Positions 3,742 through 35,681 of a stretch of 64,000 nucleotides of DNA are shown here, piece by piece. The notes under the pieces are model-generated. The model saw only the letters and a program-made list of their open reading frames with translations. It did no database searches and was not told the DNA's origin. The stretch's first letter is position 1, and each line of letters begins with the position of its first letter. The stretch is from a virus: the IMG/VR virus record IMGVR_UViG_3300021963_000038, positions 32,001 through 96,000 of that record; one strand, 5' to 3'. The position numbers and the translations under genes are program-made.

Positions 3742-5598
3742 ATGTCAACACAAGTTCAATTTAGACGGGGCAATACATCACAGACTAGCACATTCACTGG
3801 TGCTACGGCTGAGATTACTGTTGATACCGATAAGAAAACGATAGTTGTCCATGACGGAACAACTGTTGGTGGTTTTGCTTTAGCTAGAGAAAATTCAAGT
3901 AATACTGCTGGCTCATATGCCAACTCCGCATATGCAACTGCCAACTCTGCCGCTAGTTATGCTAATGCAGCTTTCGCTGTTGCTAATTCAGATACTTCAG
4001 CCGCAAATACTGGTGCTGCCTATGCCAATTCGGCATTTGCTGTATCAAATAGTGCCGCTAGTTATGCAAATAGTGGATTTGCCGTTGCTAACTCATCAGC
4101 AAGTTATGCCAATTCAGGATTCATAACTGCTAATAGTGCTGGTGTATATGCTAATAGTGCGTTTGCTGCGGCTAATGCAGCTACTGCTACCGATGCAACA
4201 CAAAATACTAATATTACAAATGCTGGTACATATGCTAATGCTGGTTTTGCAGTAGCCAATTCAGCATCATCATATGCAAATGCGGCCTTTTTGCAGGCAA
4301 ACACACCAAGCTATACTGCTAATTCAGCTGCTAGTTATGCTAATTCAGCATTTGGTATTGCAAATAATGCCTTTACTTCAAGTAATGGTGCAATTGTTTG
4401 GTCTACTGCCAACTCTGCAGCAAGTTATGCCAATTCAGGATTCATAACTGCTAATTCAGCTGCTAGTTATGCTAATGCAGCTTTTGCTTCAGCAAATTTA
4501 ATTAATGGTGTTGACTTAACACAAAATACCAACATTTCTTCTGCTGCTTCATATGCTAACTCTGCTTTCTTACAAGCAAATACTCCTAGTAATGTATCAA
4601 ATTCAGCCGCAAGTTATGCTAACTCTGCGTTCACTAGAGCTAATAATAGTATCAACGCAAATACTGGTGGCACAATTTCTGGTGATTTAAGTATTACTGG
4701 TAATTTAACTGTAACAGGTTTAACAACTTATACAAATACTACAACTGTATTGATTGCTGATAATATTATCACACTTAATGCAGCTATTAGTCAATCAGGT
4801 CAACCAGCAGTAAATGCTGGTATTGAAATTGACCGTGGCGCACAACCAAATTCTTCATTCTTATGGATTGAAACTTCAGGCAAATGGGCGGCAAACAATG
4901 GTAACAATACAATATTCATTGCAGCTGATTCAGCAGAATCATATGCTAATGCAGCTTTTGCTTCAGCAAATTTAATTAATGGTGTTGACTTAACACAAAA
5001 TACCAATATTACAAATGCAGGCACTTATGCTAACGCAGCTTTCTTACAAGCAAACACTCCATCATATGTTGCAAATAGTGCCGCTAGTTACGCCAATTCT
5101 GGATTTGCGGTAGCGAATAGTGGCAGTTCATATGCTAACTCGGCTTTCTTAGTTGCTAATAATGGTGTTGGTATTGATGTTACACAGAATACCAATATTA
5201 CAAACGCAGGCACTTATGCTAATTCGGGATTTGCTGTTGCTAATTCTGCTGCCATTTATGCTAATTCTGCTTTCTTATCAGCAAATACTCCTAGTAATGT
5301 AGCAAACTCTGCGGCTTTGTATGCTAACTCCGCTTTCGCAGCAGCAAACAATTCATCGTCTGCCGGTTCTTACGGTAACTCTGCATTTGCTGTTGCTAAT
5401 TCATCAGCATCTTATGCAAATAGTGCTTTTGCAAAAGCTAATACAGATTTTACAAATATTTCAATAACGGATGGCACATATGGTAATTCAACATATTATC
5501 CTGTTATTACTGTTTCTGCAAATGGTAGAGTTAATGTTGTAACAACTCAAGTAGTAACTGACCCAAGTGCTATCGCATTTGCCATTGCTTTAGGATAA
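3742..5598 (+). CDS. tail fibre protein with Mtd N-terminal-like domain and ANS repeats
   Basis: QVQFRRG..FTGA..EITVDTDKKTIVVHDG..GG head; repeats; ends AIAFAIALG. Confidence 0.7.
   Translation: MSTQVQFRRGNTSQTSTFTGATAEITVDTDKKTIVVHDGTTVGGFALARENSSNTAGSYANSAYATANSAASYANAAFAVANSDTSAANTGAAYANSAFAVSNSAASYANSGFAVANSSASYANSGFITANSAGVYANSAFAAANAATATDATQNTNITNAGTYANAGFAVANSASSYANAAFLQANTPSYTANSAASYANSAFGIANNAFTSSNGAIVWSTANSAASYANSGFITANSAASYANAAFASANLINGVDLTQNTNISSAASYANSAFLQANTPSNVSNSAASYANSAFTRANNSINANTGGTISGDLSITGNLTVTGLTTYTNTTTVLIADNIITLNAAISQSGQPAVNAGIEIDRGAQPNSSFLWIETSGKWAANNGNNTIFIAADSAESYANAAFASANLINGVDLTQNTNITNAGTYANAAFLQANTPSYVANSAASYANSGFAVANSGSSYANSAFLVANNGVGIDVTQNTNITNAGTYANSGFAVANSAAIYANSAFLSANTPSNVANSAALYANSAFAAANNSSSAGSYGNSAFAVANSSASYANSAFAKANTDFTNISITDGTYGNSTYYPVITVSANGRVNVVTTQVVTDPSAIAFAIALG
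4468..5006 (+). repeat. 65-bp perfect direct repeat (4468-4532 and 4942-5006) in the fibre gene
   Basis: tatgctaatgcagcttttgcttcagcaaatttaattaatggtgttgacttaacacaaaataccaa present twice; also a 38-bp repeat at 4097-4134 and 4418-4455. Confidence 0.85.
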
Positions 5599-9322: not shown

Positions 9323-11005
9323 ATGAATAATCATGGGTATTTGGGAAATAGTTCATTAAAAAGAACTGAGGTTCAACTTTCATACACAGAAGAACAAGTT
9401 TTAGAACTTGCCAAATGTGCGGAAGACCCTACCTATTTCATTGATAACTACTGTTACATAGTAACACTAGACCACGGTTTACAACCTTTTAAATTATACG
9501 ATTGCCAAAAAGAAAAGATAAAAGTTATACATGATAATCGAAAAGTTATTATTATGGAAGGCCGTCAACAAGGTAAAACTTCCACATCTGCCGCCTACAT
9601 TCTTTGGTACACATTATTTCAAGATTCAAAAACTGTCGCAATTCTTGCCAATAAGGCAACTACAGCTCGTGAAATTATTTCACGATATCAATTGATGTAT
9701 GAAAATCTTCCTTTGTGGATGCAACAAGGTATTAAAACTTGGAACAAAGGTGATGTGGAATTAGAAAACGGTTCAATCGTTTTTACTGCTGCAACAACTG
9801 GTGCAGGTATTCGTGGTAAATCTGTAAACTTATTGTATATTGATGAAGCCGCAATTATTCCTAATACGATTGCAGAAGCGTTTTTTACTGCTGTCTATCC
9901 TGTTATTTCTGCTGGTCAAACAACTAAGATTCTTATCACATCCACTCCACTAGGTTACAATCACTTTTGGAAGTTTTGGAATGATGCAATGAATAAAAAC
10001 AATGACTTTGTGCCATTGTTTATTCCATACAACAGAATTCCAGGTCGTGATGAGAAGTGGGCACTAGAACAGAAACGCCAACTTGGTGAGTTGAAATACA
10101 ACCAAGAGGTTCTGTGTAAGTTCCTTGGTTCATCTTTGACTTTGATTGATGCTGCAACGATTGAGTATATGTCAACATTACCGACTGTATACTCTAAAGA
10201 TGGTTTAGATTTGTATGAGTATCCAGTCAAAGCCGAAAGAGATGATGAAGAAGTTTTGGTCAAGAAACCACACACTTATGTTATCGTTGCAGATACGGCT
10301 CAAGGTGTTGGCGGAGACTATTCAGCTTTTGTAATTATTGATATCGCAGAAGTACCCTATAAGTTAGTGGGTAAATACAGAGATAATAAGATTGCACCTA
10401 TGCTATATCCTTCGGTTATACATAAGGTAGCGAAAGATTTTAACAATGCATATGTTTTACTTGAGGTTAACACAAGTGAACAGGTTGCATATATTTTACA
10501 ATCAGAATTGGAATATGAAAATATTCTATATGTCACCAAAACTGGTAAAGGTCAGAAAGTAACTGGTGGTTTTGGTGGTGCGGGTAGAACAAGTTTTGGC
10601 GTTGTTACTGACAAAAGAGTAAAACGCATTGGTTGTTTTACGTTTAAATCATTAATTGAAGAAAAGAAATTACTGATTCCTGATGCCGATGTGATATCGG
10701 AACTATCGACTTTTATTGAATATCGTGGTTCATATCAAGCGGATGATGGTTATCACGATGATTTGGTGATGCCTTTAGTCTTGTTTAGTTGGTTGACAAC
10801 TAATCCTTACTTCAAAGACTTAAACGATGTTAATATTCGTGAGGCAATGTATCAAGAGAGAATTAAACAAATAGAAGAAGATGTTATACCCTTTGGTTTT
10901 TTGAGTGATGGCCAAGATATGGAATATGAGGTGGATAGCGGAGATGCTTGGACAAAAGAAGATTCCAAGCCTTTACCACCAGGTTACTTATCTTCAAGTT
11001 TGTAA
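9323..11005 (+). CDS. gp17: terminase large subunit gp17
   Basis: Walker A GRQQGKT, LYIDEAA, ITSTPLG, RNase H-like domain ending HDDLVM. Confidence 0.96.
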   Translation: MNNHGYLGNSSLKRTEVQLSYTEEQVLELAKCAEDPTYFIDNYCYIVTLDHGLQPFKLYDCQKEKIKVIHDNRKVIIMEGRQQGKTSTSAAYILWYTLFQDSKTVAILANKATTAREIISRYQLMYENLPLWMQQGIKTWNKGDVELENGSIVFTAATTGAGIRGKSVNLLYIDEAAIIPNTIAEAFFTAVYPVISAGQTTKILITSTPLGYNHFWKFWNDAMNKNNDFVPLFIPYNRIPGRDEKWALEQKRQLGELKYNQEVLCKFLGSSLTLIDAATIEYMSTLPTVYSKDGLDLYEYPVKAERDDEEVLVKKPHTYVIVADTAQGVGGDYSAFVIIDIAEVPYKLVGKYRDNKIAPMLYPSVIHKVAKDFNNAYVLLEVNTSEQVAYILQSELEYENILYVTKTGKGQKVTGGFGGAGRTSFGVVTDKRVKRIGCFTFKSLIEEKKLLIPDADVISELSTFIEYRGSYQADDGYHDDLVMPLVLFSWLTTNPYFKDLNDVNIREAMYQERIKQIEEDVIPFGFLSDGQDMEYEVDSGDAWTKEDSKPLPPGYLSSSL

Positions 11006-27581: not shown

Positions 27582-27773
27582 ATGGGTGATTTTAAAAAAT
27601 TACATGAGTTTACCGATGGTCGAAATCGAACTGGTCAGGTATTCTATACAGGCAAAGATAACTACATGGTCTTGCTTTTTGAAGCGGACTTAGATTATAA
27701 TGAGATGAGAATCTTCACTAATGAAGAAGAATCTAAAAAATGTGCAATGAATTGGGTACCAATATATGAGTGA
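27582..27773 (+). CDS. hypothetical protein
   Basis: 63 aa ORF with RBS, coupled to the next gene. Confidence 0.5.
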   Translation: MGDFKKLHEFTDGRNRTGQVFYTGKDNYMVLLFEADLDYNEMRIFTNEEESKKCAMNWVPIYE

Positions 27774-28356
27774 AATTTTAACCATCAATACAGAAGCGGG
27801 TCTATTCAAAGAAGAAACGATTGAACCGTTGCCGTTATATAATGAACATCACCCGATGTTACAACAACCTATTCCAGAATATGACTTGAGAACTCTACCT
27901 AATCCTGTTATGACTAAATTAGTCAAACGATTAAAGATGACGATGAAGATGTATAGTGGTTTGGGACTATCAGCAAATCAATGTGGTGTATTCGAAAGAG
28001 TATTTGTGATTGGCAATGAAGATATGATTATTCCGTGTATTAATCCCAAAGTAATCAGAGTATCTGAAAAGACAGACAAAAACAACGAAGGGTGTTTATC
28101 GTTTCCTGGTTTGTTTTTGAAAATTGAAAGACCCATATCTGTTGATGTGGAATTTCATAATGAAAACGGCAAGTTGGTTAATACAACATTTGAAGGTCTT
28201 ACTGCAAGATGTTTTCTGCATGAATTAGACCACATGAATGGTATTCGTATGATTGAACACACAAAGCCATTAGCACTACAAATGGCAAGACAAAAACAAC
28301 AGAAGTTAATTAAAAAAGTGAAAAGAACTCAGAAAAATAATGGCATACTCATTTGA
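27766..28356 (+). CDS. def: peptide deformylase
   Basis: GLGLSANQ, EGCLS, HELDH motifs. Confidence 0.93.
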   Translation: MSEILTINTEAGLFKEETIEPLPLYNEHHPMLQQPIPEYDLRTLPNPVMTKLVKRLKMTMKMYSGLGLSANQCGVFERVFVIGNEDMIIPCINPKVIRVSEKTDKNNEGCLSFPGLFLKIERPISVDVEFHNENGKLVNTTFEGLTARCFLHELDHMNGIRMIEHTKPLALQMARQKQQKLIKKVKRTQKNNGILI

Positions 28357-29677
28357 CCCAAAAGATGATGTAGAAGAACAATGGCGTAAATGGCAAGAAG
28401 CCAATCCGCCAGATTCTTTTATGGATATTAATGAAGATGAGTTGCGTGAGCAAACCATCAAAGACCTTACCTATGTGTCGGCTATGGATGTCCGTGAATA
28501 TACACTATATCAGAAATGGTGTGAAATCAAAGACAAGTATCCCACATTTGTGAACAATACATTATTCGGTGAAGAAGTACAATTGGTTGACCCAAAACAA
28601 CAAGTGTTGGTAGATGAAGTTAAGAATAACATTTGGTTGCCTGAAAGTCCTGATGACTATTTGAATCTTGAACCTGTATTGATTTACACCGATGATTCTG
28701 GTTCTGTATCACGCAAAGGTGTTGATGGTACAGTTGTTGAAGATAAAATTAAACGTAGTGATTTACCTGAAAGATGGAACACGGCACGAAACTTTATCTC
28801 GACAATGAAGAACAATAGTAACATTGGTCGCAATCTTAACTTTCTTGTTGCAGACAATAAGACAGGTAAGTATCTTGGTGTTATTTGTATATCATCAGAC
28901 TTTCTTGATTTAACACCAAGAGATAATGCGATTGGTTGGCCTCGTGAGTTAAAGACACAAGGTGGTATGATTAATCATACTGCAATTGGTTCTACAATTG
29001 TTCCGTTTCAACCACTTGGTTACAACTATGTTGGTGGTAAGTTACTTGCATTGCTTTGCCTATCAGATGAAGTGCAAAGATTGTGGAAGAAACAGTATGG
29101 TGATACCTTGATTGGTGTAACAACAACATCATTGTATGGTAAAACTAAAGCAGGTGGTCTATCACAATATGATAACCTTGACCATTGGAATCCTATGGGC
29201 TTCTCCTCTGGTTCTGTATCGTTTGAACCAAATAGAGATACACGTTATAAAATTCGTGAATGGTTGAAAGCAAATCATACCCGTAAATATTTCGAATGGT
29301 ATGTTGCAAAGAAAGCAAGTGGTCAACCACATAAACGTGACCATAAGAATCGTTCTTTAAATTTCACTTACTCTAAGATGAGTATACCAAAAGAATTGAT
29401 TAAGGCAGAACATCATCGTGGCATTTATTTCAGTCCACTATACAACAACTCGTTTGAGTTCTTGCGTGGTGATATCAAAGAAACAGAATTGGTTAAATCG
29501 TTTGATACCAGTTATGAATCTTTGACAAAGATATGGAAAGAAAAACACGCTAAAGGTCGTATCGGTTTTCTAAAGAAGAAAGACAAGGTATCAACCGAAA
29601 CTTTGTTCTATGATGATTTGATATATCTTACATGGGAAGAAACAAAGGCAAAGTATCTTGGCCAAGTCGGCAGATAA
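28340..29677 (+). CDS. DUF4338/DruA-like protein (putative Mom-like GNAT fold), paralog 1
   Basis: GRNLNFLV.D, LTPRDNAIGW, PLGYNYVGGKLLA, TTTSLYG, SQYD motifs. Confidence 0.65.
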   Translation: MAYSFDPKDDVEEQWRKWQEANPPDSFMDINEDELREQTIKDLTYVSAMDVREYTLYQKWCEIKDKYPTFVNNTLFGEEVQLVDPKQQVLVDEVKNNIWLPESPDDYLNLEPVLIYTDDSGSVSRKGVDGTVVEDKIKRSDLPERWNTARNFISTMKNNSNIGRNLNFLVADNKTGKYLGVICISSDFLDLTPRDNAIGWPRELKTQGGMINHTAIGSTIVPFQPLGYNYVGGKLLALLCLSDEVQRLWKKQYGDTLIGVTTTSLYGKTKAGGLSQYDNLDHWNPMGFSSGSVSFEPNRDTRYKIREWLKANHTRKYFEWYVAKKASGQPHKRDHKNRSLNFTYSKMSIPKELIKAEHHRGIYFSPLYNNSFEFLRGDIKETELVKSFDTSYESLTKIWKEKHAKGRIGFLKKKDKVSTETLFYDDLIYLTWEETKAKYLGQVGR

Positions 29678-29689
29678 TAAAAATAGTGC

Positions 29690-29718
29690 TTGCTTTTGTG
29701 AAAAAAGTCCTATATAAT
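29690..29718 (+). promoter_or_regulatory. sigma70-type promoter of the tRNA-like RNA
   Basis: TTGCTT-17 bp-TATAAT about 20 nt upstream of the RNA 5' end. Confidence 0.7.
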
Positions 29719-29738
29719 TATAACATAGTAAAAAATAT

Positions 29739-29807
29739 GCGGTGGGTTGGATAACAAATTGAGGTACCCCCTTAATCAACTTTGTGAAACTCAAAGACAC
29801 CGCTCCA
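29739..29807 (+). tRNA. non-canonical tRNA-Gly(ACC)-like RNA
   Basis: Acceptor GCGGTG/CACCGC plus T73 and encoded CCA; anticodon arm TTGAG-GTACCCC-CTTAA; T-arm CTTTG-TGAAACT-CAAAG; miniature D-arm GTT-GGAT-AAC; 69 nt. Confidence 0.7.
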
Positions 29808-29840
29808 TCTTTCATTAAATCTCCAGTTCAATGAAACCTA

Positions 29841-29875
29841 AAACCCCTATTGCCCAAAGGTGATAGGGGTTTTTT
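29841..29875 (+). terminator. rho-independent terminator after the tRNA-like RNA
   Basis: aaacccctattgcc-caaa-ggtgataggggttt followed by T-tract. Confidence 0.8.
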
Positions 29876-29935
29876 CATTATTGCCACACAGAATTGGATT
29901 TTGTGTTATAATGACAACTTCAATAGGAGATTTTC

Positions 29936-30124
29936 ATGTGTAATGACAATGACTATTCGCATACCCTACTAGAACAGGAAGAAGAACATTTTTATTCCTG
30001 TGTTGCCGATGTTGTGGATGCCTTCAAAATTCATGGTACCGAAAACATCATGCGGGAAGTAAGTAAAAATACTTACATAAATCAAGAGCTTAGAGTGTTG
30101 TTTTCTGGCAACAAGACGGCTTGA
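29936..30124 (+). CDS. hypothetical protein
   Basis: AGGAG RBS and extended -10 (TGTTATAAT) upstream. Confidence 0.55.
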   Translation: MCNDNDYSHTLLEQEEEHFYSCVADVVDAFKIHGTENIMREVSKNTYINQELRVLFSGNKTA

Positions 30125-30149
30125 CATTTCAGACTACCTGTGTTACAAT
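30096..30149 (+). promoter_or_regulatory. TGTTG-N8-CAACA palindrome plus sigma70 promoter
   Basis: Palindrome at 30096-30113, then TTGACA(30121)-17 bp-TACAAT. Confidence 0.7.
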
Positions 30150-30178
30150 GGTCGTATTAAAAGTTAAATAGGTAAACT

Positions 30179-32440
30179 ATGCAAGATTATAGTGTCGAAT
30201 CAAAATCACAATTAGCGAAGTTGCTCGCTACTGAAAACCTGACTATTCAACACCAAAAAATCAGAACCGCAAAATTCGATACAGCGAATCGTGTTCTGTA
30301 TTGTCCAATTTGGGATAATATGACTGGTGATTTGTATGACCTTTTGTTAGGTCACGAAGTTGGTCATGCTTTATATACACCTAAAGATGGATGGCATGAT
30401 GCTGTTTGTGATAAAGGTGAAAATTACAAACGATTCCTTAATGTGATTGAAGATGCTCGCATTGAGAAAAAAGTCAAACGCAAATATCCAGGTATTCGTA
30501 AATCATTTATTAATGGTTATGCTAACCTTTTAGAACGTGATTTTTTCGGCATCAAAAATAAAAATGTAAATGATTTGGCATTTATCGACCGCTTGAACCT
30601 TTATACAAAAGGCGGTACAATGTTGGGTATTGCCTTTGATGAAAAAGAAAAAACATTGCTTGCTAAAGTTGAAGCAGTTGAAACATGGACTGATGTTTTA
30701 AATGTTTGTTCTGAAATTTTTGATTACTCAAAAGATGAACAATCGAAAAAACAAATCTTTTCACCATATGATGATTTTGAAGATTACGAAGATAATTATG
30801 GTGATGATGAAGAAATTGATGATGATTATGATGTTGAAGATTCTGATGAAGAATCAGATGATGAAAAACAAAATGTAAATTCGTCTGATGGTGATGCTGA
30901 AGAAACCGATGAAGAATTGGATGAAAAACAAAATGTCTTAAATCGTGAAAAGAATTCTAAAGCATTGGGTGAAGAAAGTGAAAAATTCGAACCCGATTGT
31001 GTTACTGATGAAGCATTTAGGCAGAATGAAGATAAATTACTTTCAGAAAAATGCCGTGATTTCCGTTACATGAATGTGCCTAAGTTGGTGAATCCCAAAT
31101 CTGTGTATACAGGTTACAAACGTGTTCACGAATTAATGGAAAAACATTTCAAAGAATACAATCCAGTAACTTATACGGATGGTACAGTTGATAAATTGGT
31201 GAAAGAATTCAAATCTCAAAATGAAAGATACATTTCATTATTGGCAAAAGAATTCGAAATGAAGAAGGCTGCAAAATCTTACTCTAAGGCCAAAATCTCC
31301 GATACTGGTGATATTGATATCAATAAACTTTACAAGTATCAAGTTGAAGATAATATCTTCCGTAAAATGACGGTTCTACCAAAAGGTAAATCTCACGGTT
31401 TGGTTTTGTTACTTGATAAATCTGGTTCGATGCGTGATAACATGAGTGGTTCTATCGAACAGATTTTGGTTCTAACCGCATTTTGCCGTAAAGTAAATAT
31501 TCCTTTTACTGTTTACGCTTTTAGTGATTATGACCATGCTCGCCGTATGGATGTAAGTGATGATGTTTTTGATAAAGAAAAAAATGTTGCGGCTTTCAGT
31601 AGAAATTCTGGTGAGATGGAACTAGGAGATGTTTATTTGCGTGAGTATTTGAATTCTACAATGAAAACTTCCGAGTATAATCGTTGTGTTAAGAATATGA
31701 TTTTGCTTGCCAATGCATACAATGTTTCATATAATACTCGCACACATTTTTCAATTCCACCATCAGAAGGTCTTGGTATGACTCCTCTGATTCAATCAAT
31801 CTTTGCAATTCAACCTGCAATCAGTAAATTCAAAGTGAAAAATAATCTTGACATTGTGAATTTAATTGTTGTGCATGATGGTGATGCCGATAGTTGTGGT
31901 TATCATTTGTATTATGATACTCAAAAAGAAAAAATGTCATGGAGTGGTTGGTCCCATGAGCGTGAAAATGTTTTCATTGCTGATAACAGTATTAAGTTTC
32001 AAATGAAATTGAATTCTGAAGTTAAGTATAGTGGTGAAGCATTGCGTGAAGCGGCATTTGAGTGGTTGAAAAAGAAAACTGGTGCTCGCATTTTTGGTTT
32101 CTTTATTACATCAAAAAATCGCCGTAGGTTGTACAATGACATTATGGTGAAATACAGAAATGAAAAAGGTGAATCAGTTAATAAAGGTTATGTTTGCCAT
32201 GAAGTAAAAATGTTGGCAACAAAAGTCAAGAAAGAAAAATTTCTAGAATCGTACAATGCTGGTTACAATCGTTTCTACCTGTTGCCTTCTGGTGAAGATT
32301 TGAAAATTGAAAATGAAGAACTTGAAGTTGATGGTAAATTTACCGCCAACAAATTGAAAAACGCTTTTATGAAATTCAATAAAAGGCGGCAAGTGAATCG
32401 TGTGTTGGTGTCAAAATTCATTGCAGGTATTGCTTCCTAG
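30179..32440 (+). CDS. HEXXH metallopeptidase-like/VWA-domain protein (CobT-like partner)
   Basis: HEVGHAL, NVIEDARIE, acidic linker, LLDKSGSM MIDAS, HDGD. Confidence 0.8.
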   Translation: MQDYSVESKSQLAKLLATENLTIQHQKIRTAKFDTANRVLYCPIWDNMTGDLYDLLLGHEVGHALYTPKDGWHDAVCDKGENYKRFLNVIEDARIEKKVKRKYPGIRKSFINGYANLLERDFFGIKNKNVNDLAFIDRLNLYTKGGTMLGIAFDEKEKTLLAKVEAVETWTDVLNVCSEIFDYSKDEQSKKQIFSPYDDFEDYEDNYGDDEEIDDDYDVEDSDEESDDEKQNVNSSDGDAEETDEELDEKQNVLNREKNSKALGEESEKFEPDCVTDEAFRQNEDKLLSEKCRDFRYMNVPKLVNPKSVYTGYKRVHELMEKHFKEYNPVTYTDGTVDKLVKEFKSQNERYISLLAKEFEMKKAAKSYSKAKISDTGDIDINKLYKYQVEDNIFRKMTVLPKGKSHGLVLLLDKSGSMRDNMSGSIEQILVLTAFCRKVNIPFTVYAFSDYDHARRMDVSDDVFDKEKNVAAFSRNSGEMELGDVYLREYLNSTMKTSEYNRCVKNMILLANAYNVSYNTRTHFSIPPSEGLGMTPLIQSIFAIQPAISKFKVKNNLDIVNLIVVHDGDADSCGYHLYYDTQKEKMSWSGWSHERENVFIADNSIKFQMKLNSEVKYSGEALREAAFEWLKKKTGARIFGFFITSKNRRRLYNDIMVKYRNEKGESVNKGYVCHEVKMLATKVKKEKFLESYNAGYNRFYLLPSGEDLKIENEELEVDGKFTANKLKNAFMKFNKRRQVNRVLVSKFIAGIAS

Positions 32441-32442
32441 TC

Positions 32443-32495
32443 TGTTGTTTTTATGCAACAGACTGGTTGACAATGTGATGGTTTTGTGTTATAAT
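32443..32495 (+). promoter_or_regulatory. TGTTG-N8-CAACA palindrome plus sigma70 promoter
   Basis: Palindrome at 32443-32460, then TTGACA(32467)-17 bp-TATAAT. Confidence 0.75.
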
Positions 32496-34257: not shown

Positions 34258-35073
34258 ATGGAAATTCAAGTAAACGTAGATGATTTGAAGAAACACAAAT
34301 TATTCATTGCTACACCGATGTATGGTGGTATGGCACACGGGCTTTATGTTAAATCATGCCTAGATTTGCAAACTACTATGACACGATATGGTATTGAAAC
34401 TAAATTTTCATTTCTTTTCAATGAATCATTAATTACAAGAGCTCGCAACTATCTTGTTGATGAGTTTCTCCGTACAGATTACACACACCTTTTGTTTATC
34501 GATTCTGATATTCATTACTCACCCCAAGATATTATTGCACTTCTAGCATTAGACAAAGATGTTATTGGTGGACCTTATCCTAAAAAATCAATCAACTGGA
34601 ACAACGTAGCTGAAACTGCCCGTAAACATCCAAACCTAGAACCAAGAGAACTTGAAAACTTGGTTGGTGAATATGTTTTCAACGTAGTTAAAGGTACATC
34701 ACAATTTCAAGTTTCTGAACCACTTCAAGTTATGGAAATTGGAACAGGTCATATGTTAATCAAACGCCATGTGTTCGATAAAATGGCAGAAGCTTATCCT
34801 TTGATTCGTTACAAACCAGACCATGTTGGTCAAGCTAACTTTGATGGTTCACGTTACATTCATGCTTACTTTGATACTGTCATTGACACTAAAGAAAGTA
34901 TGACTGGAGGCGGTTCTGAACGGTACCTATCAGAAGATTATATGTTCTGTCAAATGTGGCGTAAGATTGGTGGAGAAATTTATCTCTGTCCATGGATGCG
35001 TACACAACACATCGGCACATATGCATTTACTGGTAATATGCCAGCTGTAGCTCAGTATACTGGTCGTCTATGA
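34258..35073 (+). CDS. glycosyltransferase-like (GT-A fold) protein
   Basis: IATPMYGG, ESLITRARN, LFIDSDI, YLSEDYMFC. Confidence 0.7.
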   Translation: MEIQVNVDDLKKHKLFIATPMYGGMAHGLYVKSCLDLQTTMTRYGIETKFSFLFNESLITRARNYLVDEFLRTDYTHLLFIDSDIHYSPQDIIALLALDKDVIGGPYPKKSINWNNVAETARKHPNLEPRELENLVGEYVFNVVKGTSQFQVSEPLQVMEIGTGHMLIKRHVFDKMAEAYPLIRYKPDHVGQANFDGSRYIHAYFDTVIDTKESMTGGGSERYLSEDYMFCQMWRKIGGEIYLCPWMRTQHIGTYAFTGNMPAVAQYTGRL

Positions 35074-35681
35074 TTATCGGGCTGGTAGGTTTTATCGGTT
35101 CTGGTAAAGGAACAGTTGGTGACCTCCTTGAGGTTCATGGATTCACCAAAGATAGTTTTGCCAAACCTTTGAAAGATGCCTGCTCAATAATGTTTGGCTG
35201 GCCAAGAGAGTTACTAGAGGGTGATACTGAAGTTTCTCGAAAGTGGCGTGAAGAACCTGATTCTTTTTGGAGTGAAAAATTTGGTTATACTTTCACGCCA
35301 CGATTGGCATTACAGTTGATGGGTACAGAAGCTGGTAGAAATGTATTCCACCAAGATGTTTGGGTTATCTCATTATTGAATCGTGCAAAAGGTAAAGATG
35401 TTGTTGTTACCGATGTTCGATTTAAGAATGAGATAAATTACATTCAACAGAATGGTGGAATAATTGTGCGTGTTAAGCGAGGTGAAGAACCTGAATGGTA
35501 TAAACTCGCAGAAGATGCCTCTGCTGGTTTCTCATCAGCTATTATGGGAATGAAAGACAAAGGCATACACCAGTCGGAATGGGACTGGATTGGTTCTGAT
35601 TTTAATTATACCATAGACAACGATGGTACAGTTAATGAACTAGGCAATAAAGTGAAAGAGCTGTTGCAATTCATTCGTTAA
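35070..35681 (+). CDS. deoxynucleoside monophosphate kinase (gp1-like)
   Basis: GFIGSGKGT, SFAKPLK, TPRLALQLMGTE, TDVRFKNE. Confidence 0.9.
   Translation: MIIGLVGFIGSGKGTVGDLLEVHGFTKDSFAKPLKDACSIMFGWPRELLEGDTEVSRKWREEPDSFWSEKFGYTFTPRLALQLMGTEAGRNVFHQDVWVISLLNRAKGKDVVVTDVRFKNEINYIQQNGGIIVRVKRGEEPEWYKLAEDASAGFSSAIMGMKDKGIHQSEWDWIGSDFNYTIDNDGTVNELGNKVKELLQFIR

Follow-up and report, generated by a model that had tools for sequence, protein, structure and literature searches.

The window analysed here is a 64,000-nucleotide (nt) stretch of viral DNA, bases 32001-96000 of a 135.9-kb IMG/VR virus record (IMGVR_UViG_3300021963_000038) that is 82% complete, and its subject is a 69-nt RNA resembling a glycine tRNA that is encoded just downstream of a gene for a 445-residue protein of the DruA/DUF4338 family (Table 1). 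The source is a T4-like aquatic myovirus whose nearest isolates, at both the DNA and the protein level, are the Pelagibacter phages HTVC008M and Mosig and Synechococcus phages of the Kyanoviridae. Genes at the locus run in the order peptide deformylase, DruA/DUF4338 gene, tRNA-like RNA, an open reading frame (ORF) of 62 amino acids (aa), a 753-aa protein and an AAA_5 ATPase, in a region of phage replication and early genes.

Table 1. Features at and around the tRNA-like RNA, in window coordinates.
Feature	Position	Strand	Details
Peptide deformylase gene	27766-28356	+	3' end overlaps start of DruA-like gene by 17 nt
445-aa DruA/DUF4338-family protein	28340..29677	+	Pfam PF14236, 70.9 bits (cut-off 27)
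Putative promoter	29690..29718	+	TTGCTT (29690-29695), 17-nt spacer, TATAAT (29713-29718); read by eye
Probable primary transcript (leader, tRNA-like RNA, trailer hairpin, terminator)	29727..29877	+	One metatranscriptome contig
69-nt tRNA-Gly-like RNA	29739-29807	+	Sequence; fold; covariance model R1, 67.8 bits, E 7e-14
Acceptor stem GCGGTGG/ACACCGC	29739-29745/29797-29803	+	G7/A66 mismatch
Mini D region, 13 nt	29746-29758	+	RNA positions 8-20; sequence
Anticodon-like arm	29759-29775	+	ACC at 29766-29768; stem RNA positions 21-26/32-37
T-like arm CTTTG-TGAAACT-CAAAG	29780-29796	+	5-bp stem, loop TGAAACT
U73; encoded CCA	29804; 29805-29807	+	Sequence
Intrinsic terminator hairpin, then T run	29840..29873	+	15 pairs, 6 of them G-C; 4-nt loop
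62-aa ORF	29936-30124	+	Motif DYSHTLLEQEE..HFYSC; no Pfam family
Near-consensus sigma-70-type promoters, extended -10 TG	30121-30149; 32467-32495	+	Upstream of the genes for the 753-aa protein and the AAA_5 ATPase

The structural features that an earlier note, made from the letters of the window alone, had listed for this RNA are all present on direct reading. The acceptor stem pairs G1-C72, C2-G71, G3-C70, G4-C69, T5-A68 and G6-C67, and a 6-base-pair (bp) anticodon-like stem closes the loop UACCC, which holds A34, C35 and C36 (position 32 being G and position 37 C when the stem is taken to have 5 bp), before a spacer of 4 nt leads to the T-like arm. This cloverleaf is the minimum-energy structure of the 69-nt RNA (-18.5 kcal/mol, RNAfold), with a fold energy that taken alone lies within the chance range (z = -1.81; 12 of 200 shuffled sequences fold at least as well). 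A longer piece of 159 nt, from 29722 to 29880, gives z = -3.77 when folded as one strand.

The evidence that the RNA is real comes from its relatives. The DruA-like protein has 362 relatives in viral contigs, and among the best 80 of these, which are 73-100% identical to it, 68 loci carry a matching RNA of 63-69 nt, GCGG...CCGCTCCA, that begins 6-76 nt after the DruA-like stop codon and occurs in 34 distinct sequences. RNAalifold recovered 16 pairs from a plain MAFFT alignment, 11 of them with compensatory change. In the alignment A2, which comprises 37 matches fitted to a covariance model (R1) of 68 positions and 19 pairs, standard pairs fill 89.4% of cells, as compared with 41-53% when the 3' partners are slid by 1-3 columns; the covariation score of 0.528 falls to 0.181 or less on sliding, none of 500 shuffles reaches the observed value, and 14 of the 19 pairs show changes on both sides. 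One truncated and one spurious match are included in A2, and both can only lower these figures. The acceptor, anticodon and T helices are thus supported by covariation in cloverleaf order, and most variants also possess a covarying 3-bp mini D arm (e.g., GTG/CAC, GTA/TAC or GTC/GAC). A minus-strand ORF of 74 aa (29591..29815) overlaps the RNA, and the covariation there has the pattern of an RNA. Scanning the whole record with R1 (64 candidates scored) identified a single copy only. Clearly, the element is a real, selected and structured RNA.

These results bear directly on the reading of the RNA as a decaying pseudo-tRNA, for which the earlier note had left room, or as a mere transcript processing signal. 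The element is shorter than any canonical tRNA, is missed by tRNA finders and has an unremarkable fold energy on its own, as a degenerating gene might. Nevertheless, this reading is highly improbable, because the homologues show abundant compensatory changes, whose absence the earlier note had named as the sign of such decay: the 34 variants vary on both sides of 14 of 19 pairs and keep the acceptor end and the loop CC invariant. Moreover, the RNA is retained where the DruA-like proteins are 63-100% identical to that of the window, and many copies possess a promoter and terminator of their own.

In the window, the putative promoter upstream of the RNA is unlisted in a consensus promoter scan because its -35 element matches at just three of six positions. 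Among the 34 distinct variants, 24 have a -10-like hexamer whose end is 3-25 nt upstream of G1, 22 have a hairpin and T run no more than 110 nt beyond the CCA, and in four the RNA starts 6-10 nt after the stop codon with no -10 element. Twenty public sequencing runs contain the window or part of it, 12 of them at least half of its sampled words; most are metagenomes from lakes, fresh water, estuaries and the sea, and two RNA runs contain a small share. In metatranscriptome run X19, a single 151-nt contig spans exactly 29727-29877 with eight differences, three of which, as listed, match relatives such as that at locus L003. The contig starts 9 nt after the -10 element, about where a transcript would be expected to begin, and stops in the T run of the terminator, and within the examined region of 29300-30300 the cover of this run is absent at 29402-29707 and at 29878-30300. 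The public runs are available as contigs from which no ends, strand or level can be derived, and the length of 151 nt is probably that of a read, because a contig of a second run is equally long; the match is therefore a weak hint that the RNA unit is transcribed on its own. The RNA is not covered in RNA runs X20 and X24.

The sequence of the RNA indicates which amino acid it would carry. Glycyl-tRNA synthetase (GlyRS) of bacteria recognizes G1-C72, C2-G71, U73, C35 and C36, according to the available text of two papers (PMC9976931, PMC7826273), as the earlier note had said of this set of features. The complete set, including G3-C70, is present in the window RNA and in all 34 variants, and the first four acceptor pairs, U73, the CCA and the two loop Cs are invariant in 34 of 34; for the acceptor end this invariance follows in part from the search, whose regular expression required those letters and left the loop CC free. 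Every RNA found in this position carries the acceptor-end letters.

The features that a tRNA uses on the ribosome are, on the other hand, relaxed or lost. Position 34 may be A, U or C (ACC in 9, UCC in 13 and CCC in 12 of the 34), the anticodon-like loop is predicted to be 4-5 nt long, with one class forming a CCCA tetraloop closed by U-A, and position 33 is G or C in many members, with U33 or a purine at 37 absent in many. The T loop is never TTC-R-A, being TGCGAAT, AGCAAAG, TTTAACT or others in the relatives, and G55 is common without being universal (TGA in the window and often TGC in relatives; TTT, TTA and AGC in others). The D region of 12-14 nt has a 3-bp stem and lacks the conserved G18G19. 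As compared with canonical phage tRNA-Gly (RF00005), which shares the acceptor end GCGG...CCGC-U and an NCC anticodon, the RNA lacks G18G19 and T-Psi-C, is 5-12 nt shorter and encodes its own CCA. This retention of the identity set and loss of decoding features fits the suggestion of the earlier note that the RNA would be chargeable and poor in translation, and judged by its sequence the RNA is probably non-decoding.

Standard software does not see the short form, in agreement with an expectation of the earlier note. ARAGORN called no tRNA gene in the window and did not call the short RNA in any of ten further loci, and Rfam at gathering scores gave no match in the window. When relaxed to E<=10 on 29650-29950 (301 nt), Rfam returned 15 weak matches, none of them RF00005; these (rliE, PyrR, Yfr10, NsiR1 and others) are far below their gathering scores and were dismissed as chance, and in the three alignments that were examined they are driven largely by the terminator hairpin. 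Because neither ARAGORN nor Rfam detects it, this RNA family is absent from phage annotations.

A working, if unusual, decoding tRNA-Gly must still be weighed, whether it would supplement the phage's supply for Gly codons or replace a host tRNA-Gly attacked by a nuclease, with the position next to DruA being historical. All members carry the glycine anticodon NCC, and both cultivated Pelagibacter myophages with a full-length homologue of the protein encode a 74-nt relative with the regular 7-nt loop UUACCAA, as do many viral tRNA-Gly(ACC); the T loops of these relatives are AGCGUUA or GGCAGUA, and of the two copies ARAGORN detects just that of HTVC008M, as tRNA-Gly(acc). In some phages, moreover, the short RNA lies within a tRNA cluster. 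Arguing against a decoding role are the 4-5 nt loops and the CCCA tetraloop class, the frequent loss of U33 and purine 37, the odd T and D loops, the failure of the tRNA covariance model and ARAGORN to find the short form, the free change of N34 between close relatives, and the recurrent DruA-family linkage in unrelated gene contexts. Phages with the RNA also carry canonical tRNAs for Gly(UCC) and Gly(GCC). For example, G006, a complete relative of 168.9 kb with terminal repeats, has the short RNA beside its DruA-like gene (L030) together with 34 matches to the tRNA model, among which ARAGORN, applied to loci that span the tRNA cluster, identifies both tRNA-Gly(UCC) and tRNA-Gly(GCC), and a search with RF00005 at E<=0.01 leaves the short RNA of this genome unreported. 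Judging by that gene content the RNA is not needed for decoding, and a decoding function is unlikely.

Because the 68 adjacent cases stem from related phages with the same gene order, scans blind to the protein were also run. When viral contigs were searched for a tRNA-Gly(ACC) pattern that includes the CCA, at least 120 stretches matched; of the 80 loci examined, 73 are tRNAs of 74-76 nt and seven are odd-length chance matches. Among the 73 listed tRNAs, whose T loops comprise 25 canonical TTC, 44 with G55 and four TTT, a DruA-like gene was detected in the same locus in 25 (tblastn with 13 diverse queries), as compared with none of the seven chance matches. Fourteen of the 25 genes lie within 500 nt of the tRNA, and at locus L208 the stop codon is followed after 6 nt by the tRNA. 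The tRNA-adjacent genes are 28-30% identical to the nearest query and pass the Pfam cut-off (40.8, 27.3 and 77.9 bits), and the neighbours of these divergent genes differ, including HSP20, a radical SAM-SPASM protein, a redoxin and a cytidylyltransferase-like gene. In a control with a tRNA-Gly(UCC) pattern, a DruA-like gene was present in five of 80 loci; two of these five have a canonical tRNA-Gly(UCC) placed 43 nt before that gene. Finally, a pattern for the short form (63-69 nt) yielded 80 loci of which 31 score at least 42 bits with R1, and a DruA-like gene is found in 20 of these 31 and in none of the other 49; in 19 of the 20 it is directly upstream, at 6-766 nt. Three of the 11 R1-positive loci without the gene lack 5' room, which leaves eight.

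Most of those eight place the short RNA among tRNA genes. Among the whole records behind five such cluster loci, PF14236 genes occur in four, versus none of 14 control genomes; a complete record of 174.5 kb among them holds two, and the sole miss is a fragment that is 8% complete. The locus counts given here are not independent events, many contigs being close kin. With that proviso, the gene-RNA link recurs in no fewer than three divergent branches of the protein and in unrelated gene contexts.

The scans also bear on the anticodon. The earlier note had described A34 glycine anticodons as very rare in bacteria, and this agrees with the available text of PMC6720975, in which the ACC anticodon is "banished from nearly all organisms"; in viral contigs, however, it is common, with at least 73 cases. 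Fully canonical tRNA-Gly(ACC) with an encoded CCA make up 25 of the 73 listed (e.g., L136:1687-1761 and L131:4439-4513), and 11 of these 25 share their locus with a DruA-family gene. At L131, a CTP_transf_like gene (4007-4438) stands between a divergent DruA-family gene and the tRNA-Gly(ACC), which starts 1 nt later.

Further observations concern the arrangement of the short form. At L423, on the minus strand, two short RNAs stand in tandem (287-355 and 362-430), separated by 6 nt; the DruA-like gene that precedes them by 59 nt shares 66% identity with that of the window. Short RNAs within clusters are found at L433:5955-6021, L426:4137-4203, L355:5778-5844, L419:3052-3118 and L442:3137-3204; in four of these loci the RNA follows a canonical tRNA-Gly(UCC) by 6-8 nt, and in L355 it precedes one by 193 nt. 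The position directly after tRNA-Gly(UCC) suggests that the short RNA arose by duplication of a tRNA-Gly. The loci of the DruA paralogues in phages that have the short RNA in a tRNA cluster gave no R1 match.

Linkage of this kind must also be set against a role as a decoy or sponge that needs no enzyme, two of the three functions that the earlier note had put forward, in which the RNA would soak up a nuclease or toxin directed at tRNA-Gly or titrate GlyRS. The RNA keeps exactly those nucleotides that are read by tRNA-Gly-binding proteins, and it has its own promoter and terminator, as a free-standing decoy might. Such a role would leave unexplained both the repeated linkage and the genome-level co-occurrence with DruA-family genes, and the lack of conservation of the loop apart from CC would be odd in a decoy for an anticodon nuclease. 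A glycine-specific anticodon nuclease is not known to us from the likely hosts, no search aimed at one having been made. Taken together, a decoy is distinctly unlikely.

The protein itself belongs to a large family, with 3630 members at E<=0.001 among 6497 candidates and 879 representatives after clustering at 50%. Its AlphaFold2 model (pLDDT, the predicted local distance difference test, 93.1; alignment of 71 sequences) has a GNAT fold at residues ~105-395. When the model was compared with 48,161 chains by VIA-align, the top match was the Mom protein of phage Mu (8bv8_B; Z 9.1, root-mean-square deviation 3.9, 169 residues aligned), a likeness at the level of the fold only, as it is tied within about one Z unit with ordinary acetyl-CoA GNATs: ordinary acetyltransferases follow at Z 8.8-7.5, with FemA at Z 7.9 and TacT3 at Z 7.6. 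In all, 227 chains reach Z>=5, and the best 50 are, by title, GNAT-superfamily acyltransferases or their relatives. Between strand 214-222 and helix 232-239 the protein keeps a Q-x-x-G ... G-G-K stretch, at the place where GNATs bind the pyrophosphate of coenzyme A (CoA). A sequence-profile search of the Protein Data Bank gave one irrelevant match (E 0.12). DUF4338 has previously been called a GNAT domain in a comparative-genomics paper, as far as its available text goes (PMC10853773). A winged-helix DNA-binding domain was considered for the N-terminal 110 residues and is unsupported (model pLDDT 77.9, best Z 3.6 among the 48,161 chains), although this poor Z does not make the fold new.

Homologues of the GNAT core are also found in cyanophages, where they are annotated "T4-LIKE GC 1216" (~350-380 aa) and stand directly after the clamp-loader gene gp44 in Synechococcus phages S-SM2, S-SSM7, S-SCSM2R and S-PRM1 (L093, L094, L091 and L092, respectively); in three of the four records gp62 comes next, and in S-PRM1 the next gene is unnamed. 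A position between gp44 and gp62 suits a DNA-related role, as far as gene order can indicate. One cyanophage record annotates the homologue as "methylcarbamoylase mom". Two phage records encode two DruA-family paralogues each, a long one of ~423-443 aa and a short one of ~372 aa (G011, 78137-78841 and 103330-103746; G012, 10201-10863 and 35040-35372). Of two distant DruA-like proteins, P0154 yielded no locus and P0129 one (L089), with no R1 match in its 6-kb flanks.

Two known systems use glycine carried by tRNA for a reaction outside translation, and both involve GNAT-fold enzymes. The Mom protein moves glycine from Gly-tRNAGly to the N6 of adenine in double-stranded DNA, where the adduct rearranges to 6-NcmdA, and accepts all tRNA-Gly isoacceptors and not Gly-tRNAAla, according to the available text of PMC13219725. 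Like the DruA-like protein it is a phage GNAT-fold enzyme, and it is both the top structural match and the source of the chemistry proposed here; unlike it, Mom belongs to PF25680 and not PF14236, with no detectable sequence relation between the two, and is described in that text as using host tRNA-Gly with no dedicated RNA, whereas here the phage would supply a shrunken carrier. A word search of the main text of PMC13219725 found DUF4338, Druantia and phage-encoded tRNAs unmentioned.

The second precedent is found in staphylococci, where three non-proteogenic tRNAGly, NP1-NP3, serve as donors for FmhB, FemA and FemB, and where TGC or TGT replaces TTC in their T loops (PMC7826273, available text). 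The parallel lies in the retention of GlyRS determinants, with G55 in the T loop being common though not universal among the phage RNAs (UGA in the window, UGC in many relatives), and in the case of staphylococci the same text describes poor interaction with EF-Tu and the ribosome, which reserves these tRNAs for a GNAT-fold aminoacyl-transferase. It also describes the staphylococcal molecules as full-size, cellular, equipped with normal anticodon loops and confined to staphylococci; the RNA studied here is 63-69 nt, phage-encoded and possesses a 3-bp D arm and a 4-5 nt loop, with DUF4338 rather than Fem as its partner. No Fem-family Pfam match was seen among the eight neighbouring proteins scanned. 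It is proposed, by analogy, that the RNA works like the staphylococcal tRNAGly/Fem and the Mom/Gly-tRNAGly pairs while being a member of neither family.

On balance, then, the reading to which we incline is that the RNA would serve as a dedicated glycyl donor for the neighbouring DruA/DUF4338 GNAT-fold enzyme, the role among the three in the earlier note that is favoured by the recurrent link to DruA and the precedent of Mom. Transcription would start at the RNA's own promoter or, in some relatives, include the upstream gene, after which host tRNA-processing enzymes would trim the product to the 5' G1 and 3' CCA. Host GlyRS could then glycylate it by way of the retained set G1-C72, C2-G71, G3-C70, U73, C35 and C36, and the degenerate D and T loops together with the shrunken anticodon loop would exclude it from EF-Tu and the ribosome. 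Finally, the DruA-like GNAT would take the glycine from the RNA, as Mom or Fem transferases do, and transfer it to an acceptor for which a DNA adenine, by analogy with Mom, is the leading guess.

The same pair of genes could conceivably work in the opposite sense, with the RNA as the substrate of the GNAT. TacT toxins acetylate Gly-tRNAGly and TmcA acetylates C34, so that either the glycine might be acylated in a TacT-like manner or a base modified in a TmcA-like one. A substrate would account for the gene-RNA linkage no less than a donor, the structural matches include TacT3, and the A34 that recurs in other lineages could point to a base that is targeted; moreover, TacT reads U73 and G71 (PMC9976931, available text), both of which are invariant here. 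On the other hand, N34 may be A, U or C within the window's own family, and a base-specific change at 34 therefore cannot be the common function. There is also no evident reason for a phage to encode both a toxin-like acetylase and an extra target of its own, and no antitoxin-like partner was seen in the Pfam scan of the eight neighbouring proteins. A substrate role is accordingly doubtful.

A number of observations weigh against the RNA being a dedicated glycyl donor, and to begin with they include three given above, namely the partly built-in invariance of the acceptor end, the kinship among the counted loci and the near-tie of Mom with ordinary GNATs. Of the 12 loci without the RNA among the best 80, six end too early to judge and the other six (L076-L081) have a DruA-like gene with no R1 match and the next gene's promoter directly after its stop codon; the whole records behind L076-L080, fragments that are 4-16% complete, likewise gave no R1 match. 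Conversely, of the eight remaining R1-positive loci with no DruA-like gene, seven have from five to 27 tRNA genes near the short RNA, and L401 has none. The 74-nt relatives of the Pelagibacter phages are located 4-7 kb from the DruA-like gene, and when R1 was run on records of four cyanophages and one uncultured marine virus that have DruA-like genes, it revealed nothing but ordinary tRNA-Gly(UCC) in three of the five and no match in two. The adjacent tRNA-Gly(ACC) of other lineages are fully canonical and could simply decode GGU, and the preference for A34 is without explanation. As to the enzyme, Foldseek produced only weak GNAT rows, none better than E 0.03; comparison of the family profile with Mu Mom by hhalign gave a probability of 1.2%, i.e., no relationship; and Pfam at E<=10 matches the window protein to PF14236 alone and not to the Mom family PF25680, which Mu Mom itself matches at 253 bits. 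The kept Q-x-x-G ... G-G-K stretch makes acetyl-CoA a possible donor. Finally, charging, the mature ends, the avoidance of ribosome and EF-Tu, use as a donor and the acceptor are all inferred.

The family at large includes DruA of type I Druantia, to which the neighbouring protein is related as a PF14236 sequence member. No statement of DruA function was found in the text consulted on DruA, Druantia and DUF4338, and in the literature consulted on DUF4338, DruA/Druantia, the HTVC008M tRNA-Gly, Mom and the anticodon ACC, neither the RNA nor its link to DUF4338 is described. The window differs from a type I Druantia locus in that no DUF1998 or helicase Pfam match was found among the eight neighbours, no scan having been aimed at DruB-DruD, and by sequence no DruE-type partner is evident. 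It is tempting to suggest, as a possible and much more tentative extension, that all DUF4338/DruA enzymes may be glycyl-tRNA-dependent transferases acting on nucleic acid, most likely on DNA adenine, that DruA of type I Druantia may accordingly employ charged tRNA-Gly in defence, and that aquatic T4-like phages may have evolved a private carrier insulated from translation, ranging from canonical tRNA-Gly(ACC) to 63-nt forms, which would feed DNA hypermodification and spare the host tRNA-Gly pool.

Should the RNA prove to be a glycyl donor, viruses would for the first time be seen to encode a tRNA-like RNA devoted to a reaction other than translation, and this RNA would also be a natural minimal substrate of GlyRS. 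A function would then be assigned to the uncharacterised DUF4338/DruA family, on which type I Druantia defence also draws for one of its components, and Mom chemistry would extend to T4-like phages that abound in marine and fresh waters, cultivated Pelagibacter phages among them. The function of DUF4338/DruA could be tested directly in cultivated phage-host pairs.

With respect to the wider neighbourhood, Pfam assigns the eight flanking proteins to an SbcC-like ATPase, a methyltransferase, the peptide deformylase, DruA, the AAA_5 ATPase and Anp1, with two lacking a family. Outside the window, 14 canonical tRNA genes occupy 133176-135897 of the record and end within 3 nt of the end of the contig. 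No tRNA-Gly was found among these 14, the contig stopping inside the cluster; as the cluster reaches the contig end, part of the phage's tRNA set, including any tRNA-Gly, has probably been cut off. The 17-nt overlap between the deformylase and DruA-like genes suggests coupled translation, and a deformylase gene followed by DUF4338 is also the order in phage Mosig. The 753-aa gene belongs to no Pfam family, and its DNA matches in phage records are mostly annotated "peptidase". Finally, a coding sequence like the 62-aa ORF is found at the same place in many related loci.

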